From an uncultured Clostridia bacterium (GTDB taxonomy: Bacteria > Bacillota > Clostridia > Christensenellales > UBA1242): DNA of 64,000 bases. Both the position numbers and the translations under genes were made by a program. Under the pieces are notes generated by a model. The model was not told the DNA's origin and did not search any database. It worked only from the letters and a program-made list of their open reading frames with translations. The stretch spans positions 650 to 64,649 of the forward strand of contig CATKXS010000005.1 of NCBI GenBank assembly GCA_949841045.1, given 5' to 3'. Within the stretch, counting starts at the first letter, position 1; each line of letters starts with the position of its first letter. This document shows, piece by piece, positions 1,611 to 64,000 of this stretch.

Positions 1611-1637
1611 TTGACAAATTTCGGGGGGGGGTATAAT
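1611..1637 (+). promoter_or_regulatory. Sigma-A type promoter with G9 tract in the spacer
   Basis: TTGACA 1611-1616, 15-nt spacer containing G9 (1623-1631), TATAAT 1632-1637; lies about 30 nt upstream of the 1667 start. Confidence 0.6.
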
Positions 1638-10758: not shown

Positions 10759-10776
10759 TCTCCACAATTGTGGAGA
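10759..10776. promoter_or_regulatory. perfect 18-bp palindrome TCTCCACAATTGTGGAGA (candidate operator)
   Basis: Read directly in the divergent spacer between 10635(-) and dnaX, just upstream of the dnaX promoter. Confidence 0.4.
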
Positions 10777-10794
10777 AATTATTTCTTCATATGG

Positions 10795-10823
10795 TTGCAA
10801 TATTTGATAAAAAAAGTTATACT
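10795..10823 (+). promoter_or_regulatory. Sigma-A type promoter of dnaX
   Basis: TTGCAA, 17-nt spacer, TATACT. Confidence 0.55.
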
Positions 10824-10842
10824 AGTATTGTTAAGGAGAAGA

Positions 10843-11955
10843 ATGGAACATTTAGCACTTTACAGAAAATATCGTCCTGCAAATTTTGACGAAGTTGTTG
10901 GACAAGAACATATTACTAAGGCGCTCAAAAATCAGATTGCAAGTGGCAATATCGGACATGCTTATTTGTTTACTGGTTCGCGTGGAATTGGCAAAACTTC
11001 TATTGCCAGAATTTTTGCACGCGCTGTCAACTGTGAGGACAATCAAAACGGCTCGCCATGTGGCAAGTGTGAAAGTTGCAAACGCCTTGAAGGGCAGAGT
11101 GACATAAACATCATTGAAATTGACGCGGCGTCAAACAACCGTGTTGACGATATAAGAGAACTGAGGGAAAAAGTTAAGTTCACACCTGTTGACGCAAAGT
11201 ATAAAGTATATATCATAGACGAAGTTCACATGCTGACGGACTCAGCATTCAACGCGCTACTTAAAACTCTTGAAGAGCCACCAAAATATGTAATCTTTAT
11301 TTTGGCGACAACCGAAGCGCACAAACTTCCAGCGACTATTCTTTCAAGATGTATCCGCTTTGATTTTAGGCTTGTTTCACAAGAGCACCTTGTTGGTTTA
11401 CTTAAAAAAGTATTTGACAGCGAAAATATTGAATATGACGATGACGCACTTAGAGCCATTGCAGTTGCAGGCGAGGGTAGTGTGAGAGATACATTGTCAA
11501 TCGCTGATTGTGTAAACGCTTACTCAACCGGAAAGATTACGCTTGAATGTGTTGAGAGAGTACTCGGAACAACTGATGAAACACTTATGATAAACTTCTT
11601 TGGATACCTTAAAGACAGAGATGTTGGGGGGCTTCTTAAACTTATCAGTGATATTGACAAGAGCGGTAAAAATTTGCCAGTACTTGTAAAAGATTTATCA
11701 AGACATTCACGAAACCTGCTTATTGCAAAGTCTTGTGCAAGTCCTAATGAGATATTAAATCTTTCAGAAGAAAGTTTTGGGAAGTTGAAAGCACAGTCTG
11801 AGGTCTTTGACGAAAAGACACTTATCAGTTACATGCAAGTTTTTGCTGGTGCTGAGAATGAACTTCGTTATACAATGTCACCAAGGCTTTTACTTGAAAC
11901 ACTTGCCTTATCAGTTATGTCAGGGCAGGCGAGTGAGGACGTAAAAAAAAACTAA
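10843..11955 (+). CDS. dnaX: DNA polymerase III subunit gamma/tau, short (gamma-length) 0-frame product
   Basis: MEHLALYRKYRP, Walker A GSRGIGKTS, zinc module CGKCESC, IIDEVHML and SRC motif LSRCIRF. AAGGAGA RBS lies before ATG 10843. Ends in an A9 run. Confidence 0.9.
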   Translation: MEHLALYRKYRPANFDEVVGQEHITKALKNQIASGNIGHAYLFTGSRGIGKTSIARIFARAVNCEDNQNGSPCGKCESCKRLEGQSDINIIEIDAASNNRVDDIRELREKVKFTPVDAKYKVYIIDEVHMLTDSAFNALLKTLEEPPKYVIFILATTEAHKLPATILSRCIRFDFRLVSQEHLVGLLKKVFDSENIEYDDDALRAIAVAGEGSVRDTLSIADCVNAYSTGKITLECVERVLGTTDETLMINFFGYLKDRDVGGLLKLISDIDKSGKNLPVLVKDLSRHSRNLLIAKSCASPNEILNLSEESFGKLKAQSEVFDEKTLISYMQVFAGAENELRYTMSPRLLLETLALSVMSGQASEDVKKN

Positions 11956-11957
11956 AA

Positions 11958-12311
11958 ATGACAACGGCTAAGGGCAACCTTTCTGTTCGTACCATTTGGG
12001 GAAAAGTTGTACTTTACCTAAAAGAGCATCGTCAAGTTGCGCTCCACGTTGCGTGTGGTGACATAACTGATGTTAAACTTGAAGATGGTAAACTTGTTAT
12101 CAATGTTACTGAGCGAGTGCTTGCCGGACTTCTCACTGAGGGCAAGTCTGAAATTGAAAGGGCACTGCGTTGGCAGGGGCTTGATATGGAAGTTGTTGTT
12201 GTGATCAAAGAAATTGAAAGCTCAGAAGGTGAGCGGGATATAAAAAAATTAAATGAAGTTTTCGACAATGTGACTGTTGTTGAAAAGAAGACAAAAATGA
12301 TTTGGAGGTAA
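11958..12311 (+). CDS. DnaX C-terminal-domain-like ORF in the -1 frame relative to dnaX
   Basis: 117 aa. The pattern IWGKVVLYLKEH...VALHVAC...KLVINV...EIERAL resembles the C-terminal domain of Firmicutes DnaX. It starts 2 nt after the dnaX stop. Confidence 0.55.
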   Translation: MTTAKGNLSVRTIWGKVVLYLKEHRQVALHVACGDITDVKLEDGKLVINVTERVLAGLLTEGKSEIERALRWQGLDMEVVVVIKEIESSEGERDIKKLNEVFDNVTVVEKKTKMIWR

Positions 12312-53804: not shown

Positions 53805-53831
53805 TTGACAAATCCCCCCCCCGATTAAAAT
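53805..53831 (+). promoter_or_regulatory. Sigma-A type promoter with C9 tract in the spacer
   Basis: TTGACA 53805-10, 15-nt spacer containing C9 (53814-22), TAAAAT 53826-31. Confidence 0.55.
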
Positions 53832-53872: not shown

Positions 53873-54859
53873 ATGTATTGGGATAAAGGAGATATTGCTT
53901 TTTTTACTATAATGGGTACAATTGCATTGGGAACAGTTGGTGCAGTCGGAGGGCTTATTGCACATGGAATAAACGTAGGAGTTGTTAGTGCTAGCGTTGG
54001 TAACAATATTACTAAAATAGAAGAAAAGAGAAAAGAGCTCAGTAATATTGTTGCAAATAAAGCAAATATCGATAACTTTGATATTGCTTCGGTTGAACTT
54101 GCTAGAGGTGCAGAGGACAAATATTTATTTAAGGCTTTTGGCAGCACAAGTTACGAACAAATTGTAGGGCTAAAAGAAAACAAATATCTAAATGTTTTCT
54201 TTGAAATTTCACAATATGACGCAAACAAGATTATGGACAGCGTAAGAAAACTAGATGAGACCGAGAGAAGAAGAGATTTGACTTCAACTGAGCATAGTGC
54301 AATTTTAGATGAAACACAAGTAAATGAATGGAAATTTACTGAAAACGGAAGAATTGGAAAAACTACTGACGCTTGTGTAGAATTATATAACGCAATGAAC
54401 GAGGCTGTTCAAAGAGCTTATTCGTCAAAATTTGAGGAGATTTTTGAGGCAAGCAACATAAACAACGCAACTTCAAAAGTTTATAGATATATGAGACCAG
54501 AGTTTGTTGGTGACACTCATGTAAGCGGATTCTTTGCACATGGAAATACAGTTTTTGTAAATGCAGGTGTTATGACAACTAATATTTCTCAAGTTATAAA
54601 AGATGAAGAGAAAGGCATAAGTTATTTCTTAGTCGATACTTTGCAAGGTCGTGAAAATAATGGAGATATTGTTGTAGATACTTGTCGTGCAAGAGTTGAA
54701 ATTGAAGGTACAGACCTATCTCAAGAAGAGGTTTATGCTAAATTTGTAAAAGGCGAGTATTCAAGCTTTGTTGAACTGGCTCGAGAAAAAGTTGGAAGCA
54801 AGGTTAGTGTTGTAAATAATGCGCTTGCCTCTGATGTTGAAGAAATTGAACTCTTGTAG
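53873..54859 (+). CDS. N-terminally membrane-anchored protein, function unknown
   Basis: ORF-track frame 53843..54859. ATG 53873 follows AAGGAGGGG. One TM segment, then about 290 aa predicted extracytoplasmic. Confidence 0.6.
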   Translation: MYWDKGDIAFFTIMGTIALGTVGAVGGLIAHGINVGVVSASVGNNITKIEEKRKELSNIVANKANIDNFDIASVELARGAEDKYLFKAFGSTSYEQIVGLKENKYLNVFFEISQYDANKIMDSVRKLDETERRRDLTSTEHSAILDETQVNEWKFTENGRIGKTTDACVELYNAMNEAVQRAYSSKFEEIFEASNINNATSKVYRYMRPEFVGDTHVSGFFAHGNTVFVNAGVMTTNISQVIKDEEKGISYFLVDTLQGRENNGDIVVDTCRARVEIEGTDLSQEEVYAKFVKGEYSSFVELAREKVGSKVSVVNNALASDVEEIELL

Positions 54860-58321: not shown

Positions 58322-58740
58322 GTGGCTAAGCCACACGACAATCGCGCAGCGTAAGGCTGGGGAACGTAAAAATATAAAAATTAAAAATGGCTTACGAAAG
58401 TCGCGCAGCGTAAGGCTGTGGGAACGTAAAAATATAAAAATTTAAAAATGACTTACGAAAGTCGCGCAGCGTAAGGCTGTGGGAACGTAATATTAACAAA
58501 ACTTTAAATACAATAGACGATAAACGTCGAACATTTGGTTCGGCGGGAACGAAATAAATTTAAAAATCAAATATAACTAACGATAATGATGCAAACTAAG
58601 TTTGCTGGAACATAATAAAACCAAAACTTTAGATATGTCTTACGATAATCGCGCAGCGTAAGGCTGCTGGAACGTAATAATATAAAAATTTAAATACTAT
58701 AGACGATATTCGTGCAACATTTGTTTGCTGGGGAGGAAAT
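58322..58740 (+). repeat. tandem array of 8 hairpin units (58-63 bp period) ending on the U32 gene RBS
   Basis: ACGA boxes at 58336, 58394, 58454, 58517, 58580, 58642 and 58703. Stems vary (CAGCgTAAgGCTG x4, CGAACaTTTgGTTCG, GCAAACTAAGTTTGC, GCAAcATTTGtTTGC, GTGGCTAAGCCAC). 3' boxes are GGAAC(G/A)(T/A)AA. Confidence 0.9.
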
Positions 58741-58741
58741 T

Positions 58742-59923
58742 ATGGAATTACTTGCACCTGCTGGTAATTTTGAAAAACTTGTTACCGCTGTCCACTTCGG
58801 GGCAGATGCGGTTTATTTTTCAGGCAAAACTCTAGGACTTCGCGCCTTTGCTGGCAATTTCAGCAATGACGAAATTAAGTCCGCTATGGAATTTTTGCAT
58901 AGCCACGCCAAAAAAGGTTATATCACTCTCAATATCGTTGCAAAAGATGTTGACTTTGTTGGTCTAGACGATTATCTTAAAGTGCTTGAAGAGGCAAAGG
59001 TGGACGGCGTTATTGTTTCAGACGTGGGTCTTATTTACTATATCCGTAAGAACTTTCCGTCAATTGATGTTCATGTGTCAACTCAGGCAAACGTAAACAA
59101 CTCTCAGTCAGCAAAATTCTATGCTGATATGGGAGTTACTAGAATTGTGCTTGCAAGAGAACTTAATCTTGAAGATATTAAAAAAATTCATGACAATGTT
59201 AAAAATGTTGAAATTGAAACCTTTGTGCATGGTGCAATGTGTATTTCCTATTCTGGAAGATGCCTGCTGTCAAACTATTTGACTGGCAGAGATAGCAATA
59301 GGGGTGCTTGCGTTCAAGCTTGTAGGTGGAAATATTATATCCGCGAAGAAAACCGCGAAGATGAATATCCTATTGAAGAGGATGAACGCGGAACATATAT
59401 TTTAAACTCAAAAGATATGTGCCTTATTGATTATGTTGACAAATTGAGAGATGCAGGAATTGCAAGCTTGAAAATTGAAGGTCGAATGAAATCAGATTAT
59501 TATGTTGCCAGCGTTGTCAATGCGTACAGACGAGCACTTGACGGCTTTGACGATTTTAATCTTCTTCATGACGAACTTGAAAAAACCAGTCACAGACGTT
59601 ATACAACAGGTTTTTACTTTAATTCTGACGACAAAGAATATTTGAACGACAGCATGCCTGTTCAAACCTATGAATTTATGGCTAAGGCTGTGGAAGATGC
59701 AAAAGAGGGCAGGGTTAAAGTTGAAATGAGAAACAAGTTTAGACTTGGTGATGAACTTGAGGTGCTATCGCCTGATGATAATTTCTTAAAGAAGATTAAA
59801 ATTGAGAGCATTATAAACTCAATAGGCGAAAATGTAGAAGAAGCGAAAAGGGTGCAAGAAATAGTGGAAATTAACTGTCCATTTGCTCTTAAAAAAGGTG
59901 ATATTTTAAGACGTGAATCTTAA
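58742..59923 (+). CDS. peptidase U32 family protein
   Basis: MELLAPAGN start typical of U32, E..VHGAMCISYSGRC motif, and a C-terminal beta-barrel domain. ATG 58742 follows GGGGAGG. Confidence 0.85.
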   Translation: MELLAPAGNFEKLVTAVHFGADAVYFSGKTLGLRAFAGNFSNDEIKSAMEFLHSHAKKGYITLNIVAKDVDFVGLDDYLKVLEEAKVDGVIVSDVGLIYYIRKNFPSIDVHVSTQANVNNSQSAKFYADMGVTRIVLARELNLEDIKKIHDNVKNVEIETFVHGAMCISYSGRCLLSNYLTGRDSNRGACVQACRWKYYIREENREDEYPIEEDERGTYILNSKDMCLIDYVDKLRDAGIASLKIEGRMKSDYYVASVVNAYRRALDGFDDFNLLHDELEKTSHRRYTTGFYFNSDDKEYLNDSMPVQTYEFMAKAVEDAKEGRVKVEMRNKFRLGDELEVLSPDDNFLKKIKIESIINSIGENVEEAKRVQEIVEINCPFALKKGDILRRES

Positions 59924-60043
59924 GACGGAGTATATTTACATTTTATAAAAAATAGTAAGCAGAGATAATCTGCTCTTGCTCGTTTAGTGGCAAGTTTTGG
60001 TTGTGAAAGATTTAAGAAAATGTTCTGATTTATTTTTAAAACA

Positions 60044-60056
60044 GGGCGTAATGCCC
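60044..60056 (+). repeat. singleton palindrome GGGCGTAATGCCC abutting a -35 box
   Basis: A variant of GGGCATAATGCCC; the T after it begins TTGACA. Confidence 0.75.
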
Positions 60057-60057
60057 T

Positions 60058-60086
60058 TTGACAAAGATATATAAATATGTTAAGAT
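60058..60086 (+). promoter_or_regulatory. Sigma-A type promoter of sepF (extended -10)
   Basis: TTGACA, 17-nt spacer, TGT-TAAGAT. Confidence 0.55.
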
Positions 60087-60111
60087 TGTTTAATTCAAAT
60101 GAGGTGAAGAA

Positions 60112-60474
60112 ATGGGATTTATGGGTAATGTTTTTAAGGTGCTTGGTTTTGAAAGTGAAAGCAAACCAAAAGCAGCAAAAAAAGTTCAAACAAAGGCAAC
60201 TTATAGTTTAAAAAAAACAAGTTCAAGACCAGAACAAATTGATGGCATTTCTGTCTATTATCCAGAGAAAAAAGAGCAGTGTAAGGATTTTGTCGTTTTT
60301 GTAAAAGAGGGAAAAGCAATCATTATTTCCACTGATTATTGCGGAAGTGAAGAGAATGAGGGGGCTATTGACTTTTTGAAAGGATTTGCTCTTGGCGCAA
60401 ACGCAAGAATGATTACGCTCAATGAAAACAGAATGTTTTTAATTCTGCCGGAGGGAATGGAAGTTGAAGAATAA
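60112..60474 (+). CDS. sepF: cell division protein SepF
   Basis: N-terminal amphipathic MGFMGNVFKVLGF and a C-terminal domain with AIDFLKGFALGANARM..L....FLILP. Confidence 0.75.
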   Translation: MGFMGNVFKVLGFESESKPKAAKKVQTKATYSLKKTSSRPEQIDGISVYYPEKKEQCKDFVVFVKEGKAIIISTDYCGSEENEGAIDFLKGFALGANARMITLNENRMFLILPEGMEVEE

Positions 60475-61159
60475 ACTCAAAAACTTTTTTAAAGATAGGC
60501 AAAGTTTGTCAATTTTTCTTTGCATTGTTTCTTTTGTAACATTTATTTTACTTGACCAACTCACAAAAGGACTTTTAATTCCAAAAGTTATTCCTGATGT
60601 GGGGGATATGCAAAAAGTTATTCCTGGTTTTATTTCTTTCGTCTTTGTAAAAAATTATGGGGCTGCTTGGGGAATCTTTCAAAACAATAATATATTTTTG
60701 ATTATTGCAAGCATATTGGGAATTTTGCTTGTTGGAGTTTTCTATCTTTTAAGAGTTATGAGGGCGGGACAAAAAAGCTCAAGATTGTTTGCGTTGGCAG
60801 TTGGGTTTATTATAAGCGGAGCACTTGGCAATCTTATAGATAGAATTGCTTTTGGTTATGTGCGCGACTTTATCAATTTTGATTTTATCAGTTTTCCAGT
60901 ATTCAACTTTGCTGATATTGCCTTGACATTAGGAATAATAATGCTTCTTATCTATATTTTATTCTACTATTCAAAAGAATGTCCTGACGAAGAAGGAGTA
61001 TTTAAAATTTCTAAAAATAAAGAGAAATCAGCCAAAAATAACGAAAAAACCGATGAAAAACCTGAAAAAATTGAAGAAAAAGACCAATTATCACAAAATG
61101 AGAATGTCAAGAAAGATAAATTTGACGAGGAGGACGAATCCGAAAATGACATGCGGTAA
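60464..61159 (+). CDS. lspA: signal peptidase II with K/E-rich C-terminal extension
   Basis: VKNYGAAWG, GALGNLIDR and FNFADIALT motifs. TTG start follows GGAGGG. Confidence 0.85.
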   Translation: MKNKLKNFFKDRQSLSIFLCIVSFVTFILLDQLTKGLLIPKVIPDVGDMQKVIPGFISFVFVKNYGAAWGIFQNNNIFLIIASILGILLVGVFYLLRVMRAGQKSSRLFALAVGFIISGALGNLIDRIAFGYVRDFINFDFISFPVFNFADIALTLGIIMLLIYILFYYSKECPDEEGVFKISKNKEKSAKNNEKTDEKPEKIEEKDQLSQNENVKKDKFDEEDESENDMR

Positions 61160-62048
61160 TTTTATTTCTACTGTGGAAGGTCGCCTCGATAGAGTGGTTC
61201 AAGAAAAGTTACCCGAACTTAGTCGCTCTCATATCAAGACTTTGATAGAAGATGGGAAAATTCTTTTTAAAGGGAAAAAGGTTAAAGCTGGACAGCAGGT
61301 TCAAATAGGCGATGAAATCGAATATCAAATTGACGAACCTAAAGACTTGGAAGTTGAAGCTCAAGAGGTTGATTTTGACATCGTTTATGAAGATGATGAT
61401 ATTGTTGTAATAAATAAACCGCAAGGGCTTGTTGTTCATCCGTGTCAGTCAACAAAGGATGGCACACTTGTAAACGGACTTCTGTTTAAGGTGAAAAACT
61501 TAAGTGGTATAAATGGAGTTTTAAGACCTGGCATTGTGCATAGGCTTGACAAAAACACCTCCGGTCTTATGATAGTTGCCAAGAATGATTATGCTCATAA
61601 TGCTCTTGCTAAAGAGATTTCAGAAAAGGTGAATTTTAAAAGGTGTTATATTGCACTTTGCGAGGGGCACTTTAAAAATCAAGAAGGGAGAATTGAGAGT
61701 TATATTGCCCGCGACAAAAAAGACAGAAAGAAAATGGCAGTAAGCGATAGCGGTAGGTATGCGATTACAAATTATAGGGTCAAGGAAAGTATTGGCAAAT
61801 ATGACCTTGTTGAGTTTTTGCTTGAAACGGGTAGAACTCATCAAATACGAGTGCACTGTAAAATGCTCAATCATCCAATTGTTGGAGATGACGTTTATGG
61901 ACATGGCGAGAAGGGGCTTAATGGTCAACTTTTGCATTCATATAAGCTTGAATTCTTGCATCCAAGAAATAATAAAGTCATGAGTTTTGAAGTGCCACTC
62001 CCAAATTATTTTGAAGATTTTTTAAATAAAAAAAGAACCACACTTTAG
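61146..62048 (+). CDS. rluD: RluA-family 23S rRNA pseudouridine synthase (RluD-like)
   Basis: S4 domain, HRLDKNTSGLM catalytic motif and GRTHQIRVH. ATG 61146 overlaps the lspA end. Confidence 0.88.
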   Translation: MTCGNFISTVEGRLDRVVQEKLPELSRSHIKTLIEDGKILFKGKKVKAGQQVQIGDEIEYQIDEPKDLEVEAQEVDFDIVYEDDDIVVINKPQGLVVHPCQSTKDGTLVNGLLFKVKNLSGINGVLRPGIVHRLDKNTSGLMIVAKNDYAHNALAKEISEKVNFKRCYIALCEGHFKNQEGRIESYIARDKKDRKKMAVSDSGRYAITNYRVKESIGKYDLVEFLLETGRTHQIRVHCKMLNHPIVGDDVYGHGEKGLNGQLLHSYKLEFLHPRNNKVMSFEVPLPNYFEDFLNKKRTTL

Positions 62049-62061
62049 GTGTGGATTTTTT
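62038..62061 (+). terminator. Rho-independent terminator overlapping the rluD stop
   Basis: ccacac / gtgtgg stem with the TAG stop in the loop, then T6. Confidence 0.65.
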
Positions 62062-62073
62062 ATGGGTTCAAAA

Positions 62074-62454
62074 TTAAGTTATTGATTGGAATTCTGTAAT
62101 TCCGATATGGCGTTTCTTTCTTTCAATTTCAATCAAACTTGAAATGAGGTCTCTCACCTTGTATGGGTTTGCCACATGACGAAGGTGGAATTGAGGTGAG
62201 TGAGCATCATTACTTGAAATCTCAAGAGTACCTGTTTTGAAAATTCTGTCGGCAAGAGATACCTTAAGAGTTACATCAAAGCATCTGTAAACATTGATTT
62301 CATCAATTATTGCTGAAAGGAAACCTTTATGTCTGAAGAATTTCACCCATTCGCCCTCTTTCTTCACTATGTAATATCTATAGAAAGAAATAGGTAATCC
62401 AAAGCGCCTTCTTCTATCATGCCAAATTACTTCACAATCTTTATCAAATCTCAT
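62074..62454 (-). CDS. bacterial PH (bPH)-like domain protein
   Basis: 126 aa. GTLEISSND....FHLRHVANPYKVRDLI pattern resembles YdbS/YdbT-type bPH domains. Confidence 0.5.
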   Translation of the reverse strand: MRFDKDCEVIWHDRRRRFGLPISFYRYYIVKKEGEWVKFFRHKGFLSAIIDEINVYRCFDVTLKVSLADRIFKTGTLEISSNDAHSPQFHLRHVANPYKVRDLISSLIEIERKKRHIGITEFQSIT

Positions 62455-62628
62455 TATAGGCCTCCTATTTATTTACTATGATTATTTTAGCAGCAAAAGA
62501 ACGAAATGTAAAGGGATTTTTTGAAAATTCTCTAATCGGCTTGAAAAAATCATTTAAGTTAATCGCTATCTAGGTGGAAATAAGATTATAACAGGAAAAA
62601 ATTACAAAAATTAAAAAATTATCAGAAA

Positions 62629-62651
62629 TCAAATCAAATAAATTGATTTGA
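62629..62651. promoter_or_regulatory. inverted repeat TCAAATCAA-ataaa-TTGATTTGA upstream of the surface-protein gene
   Basis: 9-bp perfect arms read directly in the divergent spacer. Confidence 0.3.
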
Positions 62652-62707
62652 ATTTTAAAAAAAGATATACAATAAATATATAGAAAAACAAAAAGAGGGG
62701 TAGGGGT

Positions 62708-64000
62708 ATGAAAAAAATAAAAAGATTTAGTTTATATATTTTTGTAGCTCTTGTTTTAGGTTTACTTGGAACTCTTGCCCTAACCTTGCCTAATTCGGGG
62801 GGGGGCTCAGCAAAATGCTGAAGTTGGCATAGAGAAAGACTCGGCTTATGCTGCAACTACTACTGCAACTGTTTTTGGATATTATTCTAGTAGTTTAATT
62901 AATGCTGAAGAGTATCACGATGTCAATGGCAGAGGTTACCCTGAATGGTTAGGCAATTTGGCAACATTTTCAATGAGAATAGGAAGCACGACTTATTCAA
63001 TATCTGGACGAACAAACATTAGTTTGACTAGTGGGACTACATATACGTTCACTGTTTTGACAGTACCGACAGGTTATAATTTTGTAGGCTGGTGGGAAGA
63101 AGAGGACCTATCAGATGATGCAAATTCATTTTATGATTATTACCTACGCTCAACCTCGACAAGTTGTTCAATGACTGCTAAGTGGGGATATATTGACTAT
63201 TTTCCAGTTTTTGAACCTGCGGGTGCAACCTATACCATCACTGCAAACGGAAATGGTGGACGTGTAGGCAATGCAGATGATGAATGGCTACATAGTAGTG
63301 ATTATACTACCGCAACACGAAGGGTCTTTGTTGGAGATACGTATGCTGCTTTGCCTGAAGGAGGAAATCGAAGTGGATATATTTTTACAGGGTGGTATAC
63401 TTAACAATCCGCTGCCAACAGTTCAAATCCAAATTACTTGGTTTTACAAAATAAGGTTGCAACAAGCAATGCAACAATTTATGCAGGCTGGAAATCAGTA
63501 GGTAGTACTAACTATATCCGTACCATATTAGTGTACAGGCAGACACTTCCAATTACATATTCTAATGGTTGGTATCAAACTCTTTATGATGAATATTATT
63601 ATAAATATTTTGTTTCAGGTTCAAATTGGAATATTCCAACTACAAATTCTGGCTATGACGTAACATATAATACCAACATAAATGGTACAGGCTCTCAAGT
63701 CACCACAGGTACAACTGTGACTTCAAATACCTATTTCGCTTATGCACAAGTCAACGCGAAACAATTTACTATTACATATCATAGTAATTATGGAAGTGAT
63801 GAGACTAAAACTCAAGGCGTTGTTTATGATACACCTTTGAATATTCGAGAAGGTTTGTCTAGGCCGGGCTATACTTTTTTAGGTTGGGGGAAATCTTCCA
63901 TTCAAACTAGTCCAACTTATACCGCAGGACAATCTGTCACAAATCCATTTGGTGCAAGCGGTGGAGACCTTTATGCAATATGGAGTGCGAACTCCTACAC
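62708..64000 (+). pseudogene. large secreted Listeria-Bacteroides-repeat (GY.F.GW) surface protein; out of frame at a G9 tract, with an in-frame TAA; continues past the window end
   Basis: Signal peptide MKKIKRFSLYIFVALVLGLLGTLALTLPNSGGG is followed by G9 (62797-805) and a stop at 62819. The +1 frame is open from 62805 through the track ORF 62958..63404. After TAA (63402-04) the same frame stays open to 64000. Repeats GYNFVGW, GYIFTGW and GYTFLGW are present. Confidence 0.7.

Follow-up and report, generated by a model that had tools for sequence, protein, structure and literature searches.

The stretch of DNA analysed here (the window) is a 64,000-nucleotide segment of contig CATKXS010000005.1 (positions 650 to 64,649) from an uncultured Clostridia bacterium (assembly GCA_949841045.1). 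Close to its right end lies a gene for a predicted surface or secreted repeat protein, the coding sequence of which contains a run of nine G residues (G9) directly downstream of the signal peptide. The window has a GC content of 35.5% and is ordinary chromosome, with genes for PPDK, SpoIIE, dnaX, argS, feoB, a tlyA-like protein, a U32 peptidase, sepF, lspA and rluD. The host belongs to the uncultured low-GC gut Clostridia. Its nearest relatives in the genome collection were sought with RluD: among 80 RluD loci from species-representative genomes, the best matches are uncultured Eubacteriales/Clostridia gut metagenome-assembled genomes (MAGs) at 72% identity, and RluD of Candidatus Caccovivens faecavium is 60% identical to that of the window. 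The genus Ca. Caccovivens corresponds to UBA11517 of GTDB, in the family UBA1242 and order Christensenellales (PMC8035907; NCBI lineage). For comparison the 80 loci were divided into the 40 closest (636 kb) and 40 distant ones (632 kb).

The features of the locus and of comparable loci are collected in Table 1. The preliminary description of this DNA had placed an open reading frame (ORF) with a ribosome-binding site and a signal peptide at 62708 and a G9 run immediately behind the signal peptide, and both assignments are exact to the nucleotide. The N-terminus, MKKIKR followed by FSLYIFVALVLGLLGTLALTL and PNSGG, has a charged n-region, a 21-residue hydrophobic core and a polar c-region, the standard layout of a predicted Sec-type signal peptide. 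The tract occupies codons 31-33, in the 5' part of the coding region, and has a slippage-prone length (about 7-8 nt or more). The stop reported at 62819 is the first base of a TGA, which closes the assembled ORF after 37 amino acids. As had been proposed, one G fewer or two more (G8 or G11) joins this ORF to a series of GY.F.GW repeats: the frame reads ...LPNSGG(G)AQQNAEVGIEKD..., followed by the repeats GYNFVGW, GYIFTGW and GYTFLGW. The Pfam family Flg_new (PF09479, the Listeria-Bacteroides repeat) is recognised there in two stretches (53.2 bits against a cut-off of 27, E=3.3e-14). The first part of the mature region contains 198 complete codons (62808-63401), preceded by an Ala codon that straddles the tract. 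The C-terminus of the protein falls past the window end; the gene as called on the source contig itself (P0001, 327 aa) starts from a TTG at 63438 and ends in ...GESVTDFLL, with no anchor visible. Upstream of the gene, a candidate promoter block, aaaaagatatacaataaa, is kept in the alignment with a second allele described below (L092). A consensus promoter scan made no call at 62643-62673, and we infer the promoter of this gene from its sequence.

Table 1. Sequence features of the window and poly-G/C tracts of related loci (L numbers)
Feature	Position	Strand	Description
Promoter-spacer tract (second tract of the window)	1611..1637	+	cTTGACA-aatttc-G9-TATAAT, 15-nt spacer as assembled; upstream of small membrane-protein gene 1667-2062
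Promoter-spacer tract (third tract of the window)	53805..53831	+	cTTGACA-aat-C9-gat-TAAAAT, 15-nt spacer as assembled; upstream of gene 53873-54859
Candidate promoter of the surface-protein gene	62643..62673	+	TTGATT (62643-62648), 17 nt, TATACA; or TACAAT 62668-62673
Ribosome-binding site	62695..62700	+	GAGGGG, 7 nt 5' of ATG 62708
Start codon and signal-peptide coding part	62708..62796	+	MKKIKRFSLYIFVALVLGLLGTLALTLPNS; sequence read directly
Out-of-frame (OFF) ORF as assembled	62708..62821	+	37 aa, TGA 62819-62821; MKKIKRFSLYIFVALVLGLLGTLALTLPNSGGGSAKC
G9 homopolymer, proposed slippage switch	62797..62805	+	encodes Gly-Gly(-Gly) ending the signal peptide
Mature region, part 1	62806..63401	+	G8/G11 frame; GYNFVGW and GYIFTGW repeats
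In-frame TAA nonsense codon	63402..63404	+	within a Flg_new repeat, 199 codons 3' of the tract
Repeat-protein continuation	63405..64000	+	same frame, open for 198 codons to the window end
Coding tract, L031	11194-11203		G10 past lipobox; GLUG/Flg_new lipoprotein; needs -1/+2 nt
Coding tract, L035			G10; Flg_new protein, >538 codons open past the tract; needs -1/+2 nt
Coding tract, L036 (Ca. Caccovivens)			G9; Flg_new protein, >597 codons open past the tract; needs +1/-2 nt
Promoter tract, L010			gene product of 1100 aa, six Flg_new stretches and a sub-threshold GLUG match
Promoter tract, L005			gene product with a sub-threshold Flg_new match, 22.3 bits against a cut-off of 27
Promoter tract, L056			G12; gene product of >1734 aa, right-handed beta-helix

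The repeat frame had been described as open over more than 390 codons as far as the window end; it is in fact closed about half-way by an in-frame TAA. The context of this codon in the corrected frame is GYIFTGWYT-stop-QSAANSS. It aligns with the Ser of GW.TSSS in the repeats of two related proteins (L035 and L036) and fits a change of TCA to TAA. A reading of TAA as a sense codon or a suppressed stop was considered and rejected: TAA is an ordinary stop here, ending 38 of the 49 long ORFs, and no tRNA gene was found in the window. At G8 or G11 the product is therefore capped by the TAA at 231 aa, and a complete functional ORF is not restored, the frame being regained only up to this codon. Compared with the allele L092, the sequence past the TAA has a ratio of non-synonymous to synonymous changes (pN/pS) of 0.34, based on 11 synonymous and 13 non-synonymous differences (binomial P=0.009 against neutrality). 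This indicates that the downstream half diverged under purifying selection, although part of the divergence may predate the lesion. Two disabling lesions, the frameshift at the tract and the TAA, are found in all four assemblies of the gene (the window, L004, L092 and L093); the relaxed selection of a pseudogene, with a dN/dS near 1, is not.

The four assemblies come from four read sets. Using the neighbouring bPH-domain gene (62074-62454, minus strand), we reached the Logan contig SRR32020728_54492 (L001, also L004), which shares 99.2% identity with the window across 5.3 kb. All 40 single-nucleotide differences and one indel between the window and L004 are confined to 58708-62365. Over the next 1.6 kb (62366-64000), which includes the TAA, the sole difference is the length of the tract, G10 in SRR32020728 as against G9 in the window. 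A second allele of a 143-aa internal ORF (P0016) is carried by contigs ERR4093270_158557 (L092) and ERR4093271_461993 (L093), both with G9 and the shared TAA. Past the tract, 26 of 1195 positions distinguish these contigs from the window, only two of them within the first 594 nt and the other 24 further on, and four residues are changed in the L092 signal peptide, with its charge and hydrophobic pattern kept. The upstream neighbour of the second allele is the C-terminus of prfA in place of the bPH gene: in L092 (1-450 region) the copy of the surface-protein gene, 97% identical, lies downstream of this prfA-like gene rather than of rluD-bPH. Two rluD-bPH contigs from the same samples (L002, L003) end just before the surface-protein gene. 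With its mosaic similarity, the L092/L093 copy appears to be either a paralogue or an allele that has been rearranged; each genome may contain two paralogous copies, or the locus may have undergone rearrangement. The mosaic divergence suggests recombination tracts that carried the G tract and the TAA together.

Tract lengths in the four assemblies are thus G9, G10, G9 and G9, all of them OFF. The length differs between close strains with conserved flanks, the variation consisting of two lengths taken from consensus assemblies. In an exact look-up among about 15 billion proteins, records exist for both the 37-aa product of G9 and the 41-aa product of G10. The same look-up holds no record of the in-frame (ON) products of G8, G11 and G14, nor of the products of G6, G7, G12 and G13. 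A pattern of the exact DNA flanks with a variable gap gave 0 matches in the metagenome and genome contig collections and added no further tract lengths, and a protein-based scan of metagenome contigs recovered relatives at 29-33% identity only.

The tract is over-represented relative to base composition, which indicates selection and not chance. The motif GGGGGGGGG, counted on either strand, occurs three times in the window against 0.05 expected, and none of 100 shuffled sequences reached three. The distribution of G/C runs in the window is bimodal, with 20 runs of 5 nt, two of 6, one of 7, none of 8 and three of 9. The 40 closest loci contain five runs of 6 nt, three of 7, five of 8, six of 9 and two of 10, that is 13 runs of 8-10 nt. 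In the 40 distant loci we counted 14 runs of 6 nt, one of 7, none of 8-11 nt and two of 12; both G12 runs are promoter-spacer tracts (L049 and L056). GGG is a rare glycine codon in the window, accounting for only 12% of Gly codons.

The two other long tracts of the window lie exactly between recognisable -35 and -10 hexamers, perfect or near-perfect at both sites, so that their length would set the promoter spacer. The tract at 1623 looks like a promoter-spacer phase-variation tract: its spacer would be 17 nt at G11. The tract at 53814 precedes a gene whose 328-aa product has a transmembrane segment at its N-terminus and matches no Pfam family. The consensus scan is silent on both tracts because it allows spacers of 16-18 nt only. 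The nearest homologues of the gene behind the C9 tract are 54-56% identical. One of them, P0019 (54%), bears an ankyrin C-terminal extension, and in ten assemblies (L094-L103) its promoter is fixed as TTGACA-17-TATAAT, the G-rich spacer being interrupted and free of homopolymers. This supports the promoter assignment for the C9-tract gene, yet the tract itself is not conserved there. Exact look-ups of P0001, dnaX and the genes behind both promoter tracts returned no record. Together with ten in related loci, the two tracts of the window make up a set of twelve with the arrangement TTGAC[ACT]-tract-TAnAAT. Their spacers measure 15 nt (five tracts), 16 nt (two), 17 nt (one), 18 nt (two), 19 nt (one) and 20 nt (one), and several precede genes for proteins with N-terminal signal or transmembrane sequences.

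Three related loci carry a tract in the same context as the G9 of the window, namely in the 5' coding region directly past a signal or lipobox peptide, in a gene adjoining rluD. All three (L031, L035 and L036) are out of frame as assembled. The L031 gene has a second frameshift at a CCC run (11730-11740), which splits it into ORFs of 184 and 593 aa. No ON state was found among the seven coding tracts (the four assemblies of the window species and the three related loci). The similarity of the window protein to the L035 and L036 proteins is at the level of the repeats only (E about 1e-3 to 1e-4); for this reason we do not claim orthology, and claim only an equivalent (analogous) position of the tracts. 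Two further G9 tracts in related loci, L023 20007-20015 and L039 10954-10962, fit neither the promoter-spacer nor the signal-junction context: one lies inside the ORF of a multi-pass membrane protein, and the other is intergenic, 48 nt past the rluD stop.

A homopolymer of a different kind ends the dnaX gene of the window (10768-11955). The gene encodes 395 aa with the clamp-loader N-terminal domains only, and closes with V-K-K-N-TAA directly after an A9 run (11943-11951). The ORF that follows (11958-12311, 117 aa) lacks a Shine-Dalgarno sequence as well as any Pfam match, and one extra A or a -1 shift would bring it into frame with dnaX. Such a shift would fuse the two into a tau-like protein of about 512 aa, with ybaB and recR following, and the A9 run looks like a gamma/tau slippage or frameshift site.

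Slipped-strand phase variation appears to be the right kind of mechanism for the surface-protein gene, and is the best-supported reading of the locus. Slipped-strand mispairing during replication would alter the length of the tract. At G8 or G11 the signal peptide would be in frame with the repeats (ON), and at G9 or G10 translation would end after 37 or 41 residues (OFF). The lineage uses poly-G tracts widely, at signal-peptide junctions as well as in the predicted sigma-A promoter spacers of surface-protein genes. This particular gene would have been silent long enough to acquire a nonsense mutation, or to receive one by recombination, and for too short a time to lose its open frames or the signature of purifying selection. 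The presence of the TAA in two diverged alleles implies that slippage alone would now yield only the 231-aa secreted fragment, and the shared TAA together with the uniform OFF state suggests a contingency gene that has been silent for some time. We lean towards the view that the G9 run is a genuine, selected contingency tract on a Flg_new surface or secreted protein gene, phase-variable, and caught silenced and in early decay; reversible switching within a population and an adaptive benefit are what we infer from this pattern, and the gene itself is probably decaying. The phase-variation layout recognised in the preliminary description thus stands as far as the tract is concerned, which is selected, length-variable and recurring in relatives. 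It does not extend to an otherwise intact gene or to an allele of ON length.

Several observations weigh against such a contingency tract. No ON allele was found: all four assemblies and the three genes in related species are OFF, an outcome with a chance of about 0.09, which is not significant but lends no positive support. The observed variation is that of two lengths, both from consensus assemblies. The shared TAA bars a full-length rescue by slippage alone, which weakens the claim of a currently useful switch. The pN/pS of 0.34 past the TAA points to past purifying selection, unlike that expected of a long-dead gene. Judging from the mosaic divergence, recombination may have spread the 5' segment that bears the TAA. 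Finally, the likeness to the L035 and L036 proteins does not go beyond the repeats.

Some of these points bear on the alternatives as well. The switch might still work, with ON cells secreting the 231-aa protein (a signal peptide and about two repeats) or with the TAA lost through reversion or through gene conversion with a second copy as donor. A slippage-prone tract length is kept in two diverged alleles, the altered signal peptide of L092 retains its charge and hydrophobic pattern, both halves of the gene are open for at least 198 codons in a 35% GC genome, and the pN/pS of 0.34 counts in its favour. The copy downstream of prfA, with its mosaic similarity, makes recombination between copies plausible. 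We nevertheless regard a working switch as unlikely, though the best of these alternatives, since no ON allele was found anywhere, both alleles carry the TAA and no TAA-free donor copy was seen, and the part past the TAA lacks a signal peptide of its own. A plain pseudogene, in which frameshift and nonsense codon are ordinary lesions and slippage in dead DNA, neutral and without a regulatory role, explains G9/G10, is decidedly improbable. It would account for two independent lesions common to the assemblies, for the OFF state of every copy and for the second frameshift of the L031 relative at the CCC run. Yet a G9 is not expected by chance in this genome, tracts of the same type occupy the same type of position in intact-looking genes (538 and 597 open codons past the tract in L035 and L036) and also promoter spacers, and the downstream divergence bears the mark of purifying selection. 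The preliminary description had equated a dead gene with a uniform G9 accompanied by further decay; further decay is present in the form of the TAA, but the length is not uniform. Interruption of the tract (e.g. GGGAGGGGG) and stops accumulating across strains would indicate a plain pseudogene.

An error of sequencing or assembly, with a true tract of G8 or G11 and an intact 5' part of the gene, had been named as the alternative to phase variation, and we now consider it very unlikely. Homopolymers are error-prone, and a length of 11 would be optimal for all three tracts of the window, putting the coding tract in the ON frame and giving 17-nt spacers at the two promoters. Against this, four assemblies from independent read sets give G9 or G10, A8/T8 runs inside ORFs leave those ORFs open, and the TAA stays at any tract length. 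A systematic under-calling of homopolymers was rejected on the open state of the A8/T8-bearing ORFs and on the differing direction of the corrections needed among loci: those of L031, L035 and L036 argue against a bias in one direction. A chimeric assembly join at poly-G was rejected as well, because the flanks are functionally continuous (from signal peptide to mature protein, and from -35 to -10), and a tract of 9-10 nt is much shorter than typical assembly k-mers. We give the least credence to recoding, in which RNA-polymerase slippage or ribosomal frameshifting on the G run would produce a constant small in-frame fraction. All seven coding tracts are out of frame, as if this were the designed state, and the dnaX gene of the window resembles a slippage or frameshift site at its A9 run. 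But the frames required differ among loci (-1/+2 and +1/-2) and follow no common rule, the length variation is observed at the level of DNA, and the TAA would still end translation. Moreover, transcriptional slippage is best documented on A/T runs.

The closest known system is that of the sortase-dependent pilins of Bifidobacterium breve UCC2003, in which a G-tract divides the gene into two ORFs, for the Sec signal and the LPXTG motif, and slippage during replication switches it ON and OFF (PMC9187656). Both organisms are Gram-positive gut commensals in which a poly-G run separates the ORF of the Sec signal from the remainder of a surface protein, annotated as two ORFs, and in both the OFF state predominates. 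Unlike the LPXTG pilins of the high-GC actinobacterium, the protein considered here is a Flg_new repeat protein of a 35% GC Clostridia, and its gene has an additional nonsense codon. Switching was measured in B. breve by maximum-depth sequencing, whereas the variation described here is between assemblies. Campylobacter jejuni and Helicobacter possess sets of poly-G/C contingency loci, termed the 'phasome' (PMC8355987, PMC2823697). They share with the present lineage a low-GC genome, an excess of G/C runs of 8-12 nt with a bimodal length distribution, the placement of the runs in the 5' coding and upstream regions of surface-structure genes, and slipped-strand mispairing, which is proposed here. 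In contrast to them, the present host belongs to the Bacillota, with the sporulation gene SpoIIE in the window; Flg_new, GLUG and beta-helix proteins take the place of glycosyltransferase, flagellar and capsule genes as targets; and many of the tracts lie precisely in the -35/-10 spacer. In Neisseria meningitidis porA and opc, a poly-G/C tract in the -35/-10 spacer sets promoter strength in steps. The tracts at 1623 and 53814 and the ten in related loci resemble this arrangement, with promoters predicted from consensus hexamers; the likeness covers these neighbours and not the G9 coding tract. A survey of simple sequence repeats (PMC5084427) accompanies this comparison. Keyword searches of the open-access literature found no report of a poly-G device in UBA1242-like or other gut Clostridia, which is not proof of absence.

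A broader possibility, to which we assign a little less than an even chance, is that the family-level lineage of small low-GC gut Clostridia near UBA1242 and Ca. Caccovivens possesses a poly-G phasome like that of Campylobacter. Flg_new, GLUG and beta-helix proteins would be switched through promoter-spacer and signal-junction tracts, the coding tracts would be OFF by default and the alleles would be recombination mosaics; the window locus would be one member, which has secondarily acquired a nonsense mutation. Most documented cases of repeat-mediated phase variation come from host-adapted pathogens, among them Campylobacter, Helicobacter, Neisseria, Haemophilus and mycoplasmas. For gut commensals, apart from the G-tract case of B. 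breve, mostly invertible promoters are known. According to the comparative data, the present lineage has about one long G/C tract per 20-50 kb, before or inside surface-protein genes, and this lineage-wide set is a more interesting result than the single locus. The appropriate annotation for the gene described here is a phase-variable gene with a frameshift and a nonsense codon; it should not be entered as an intact large adhesin, nor put down to an assembly error. If switching is true, these poorly known commensals would vary at the surface in a stochastic and heritable way, their main surface proteins would be systematically split or discarded as 'frameshifted' by MAG annotation pipelines, and tract lengths could be used as markers of in-vivo selection, for example by immunoglobulin A or phage.

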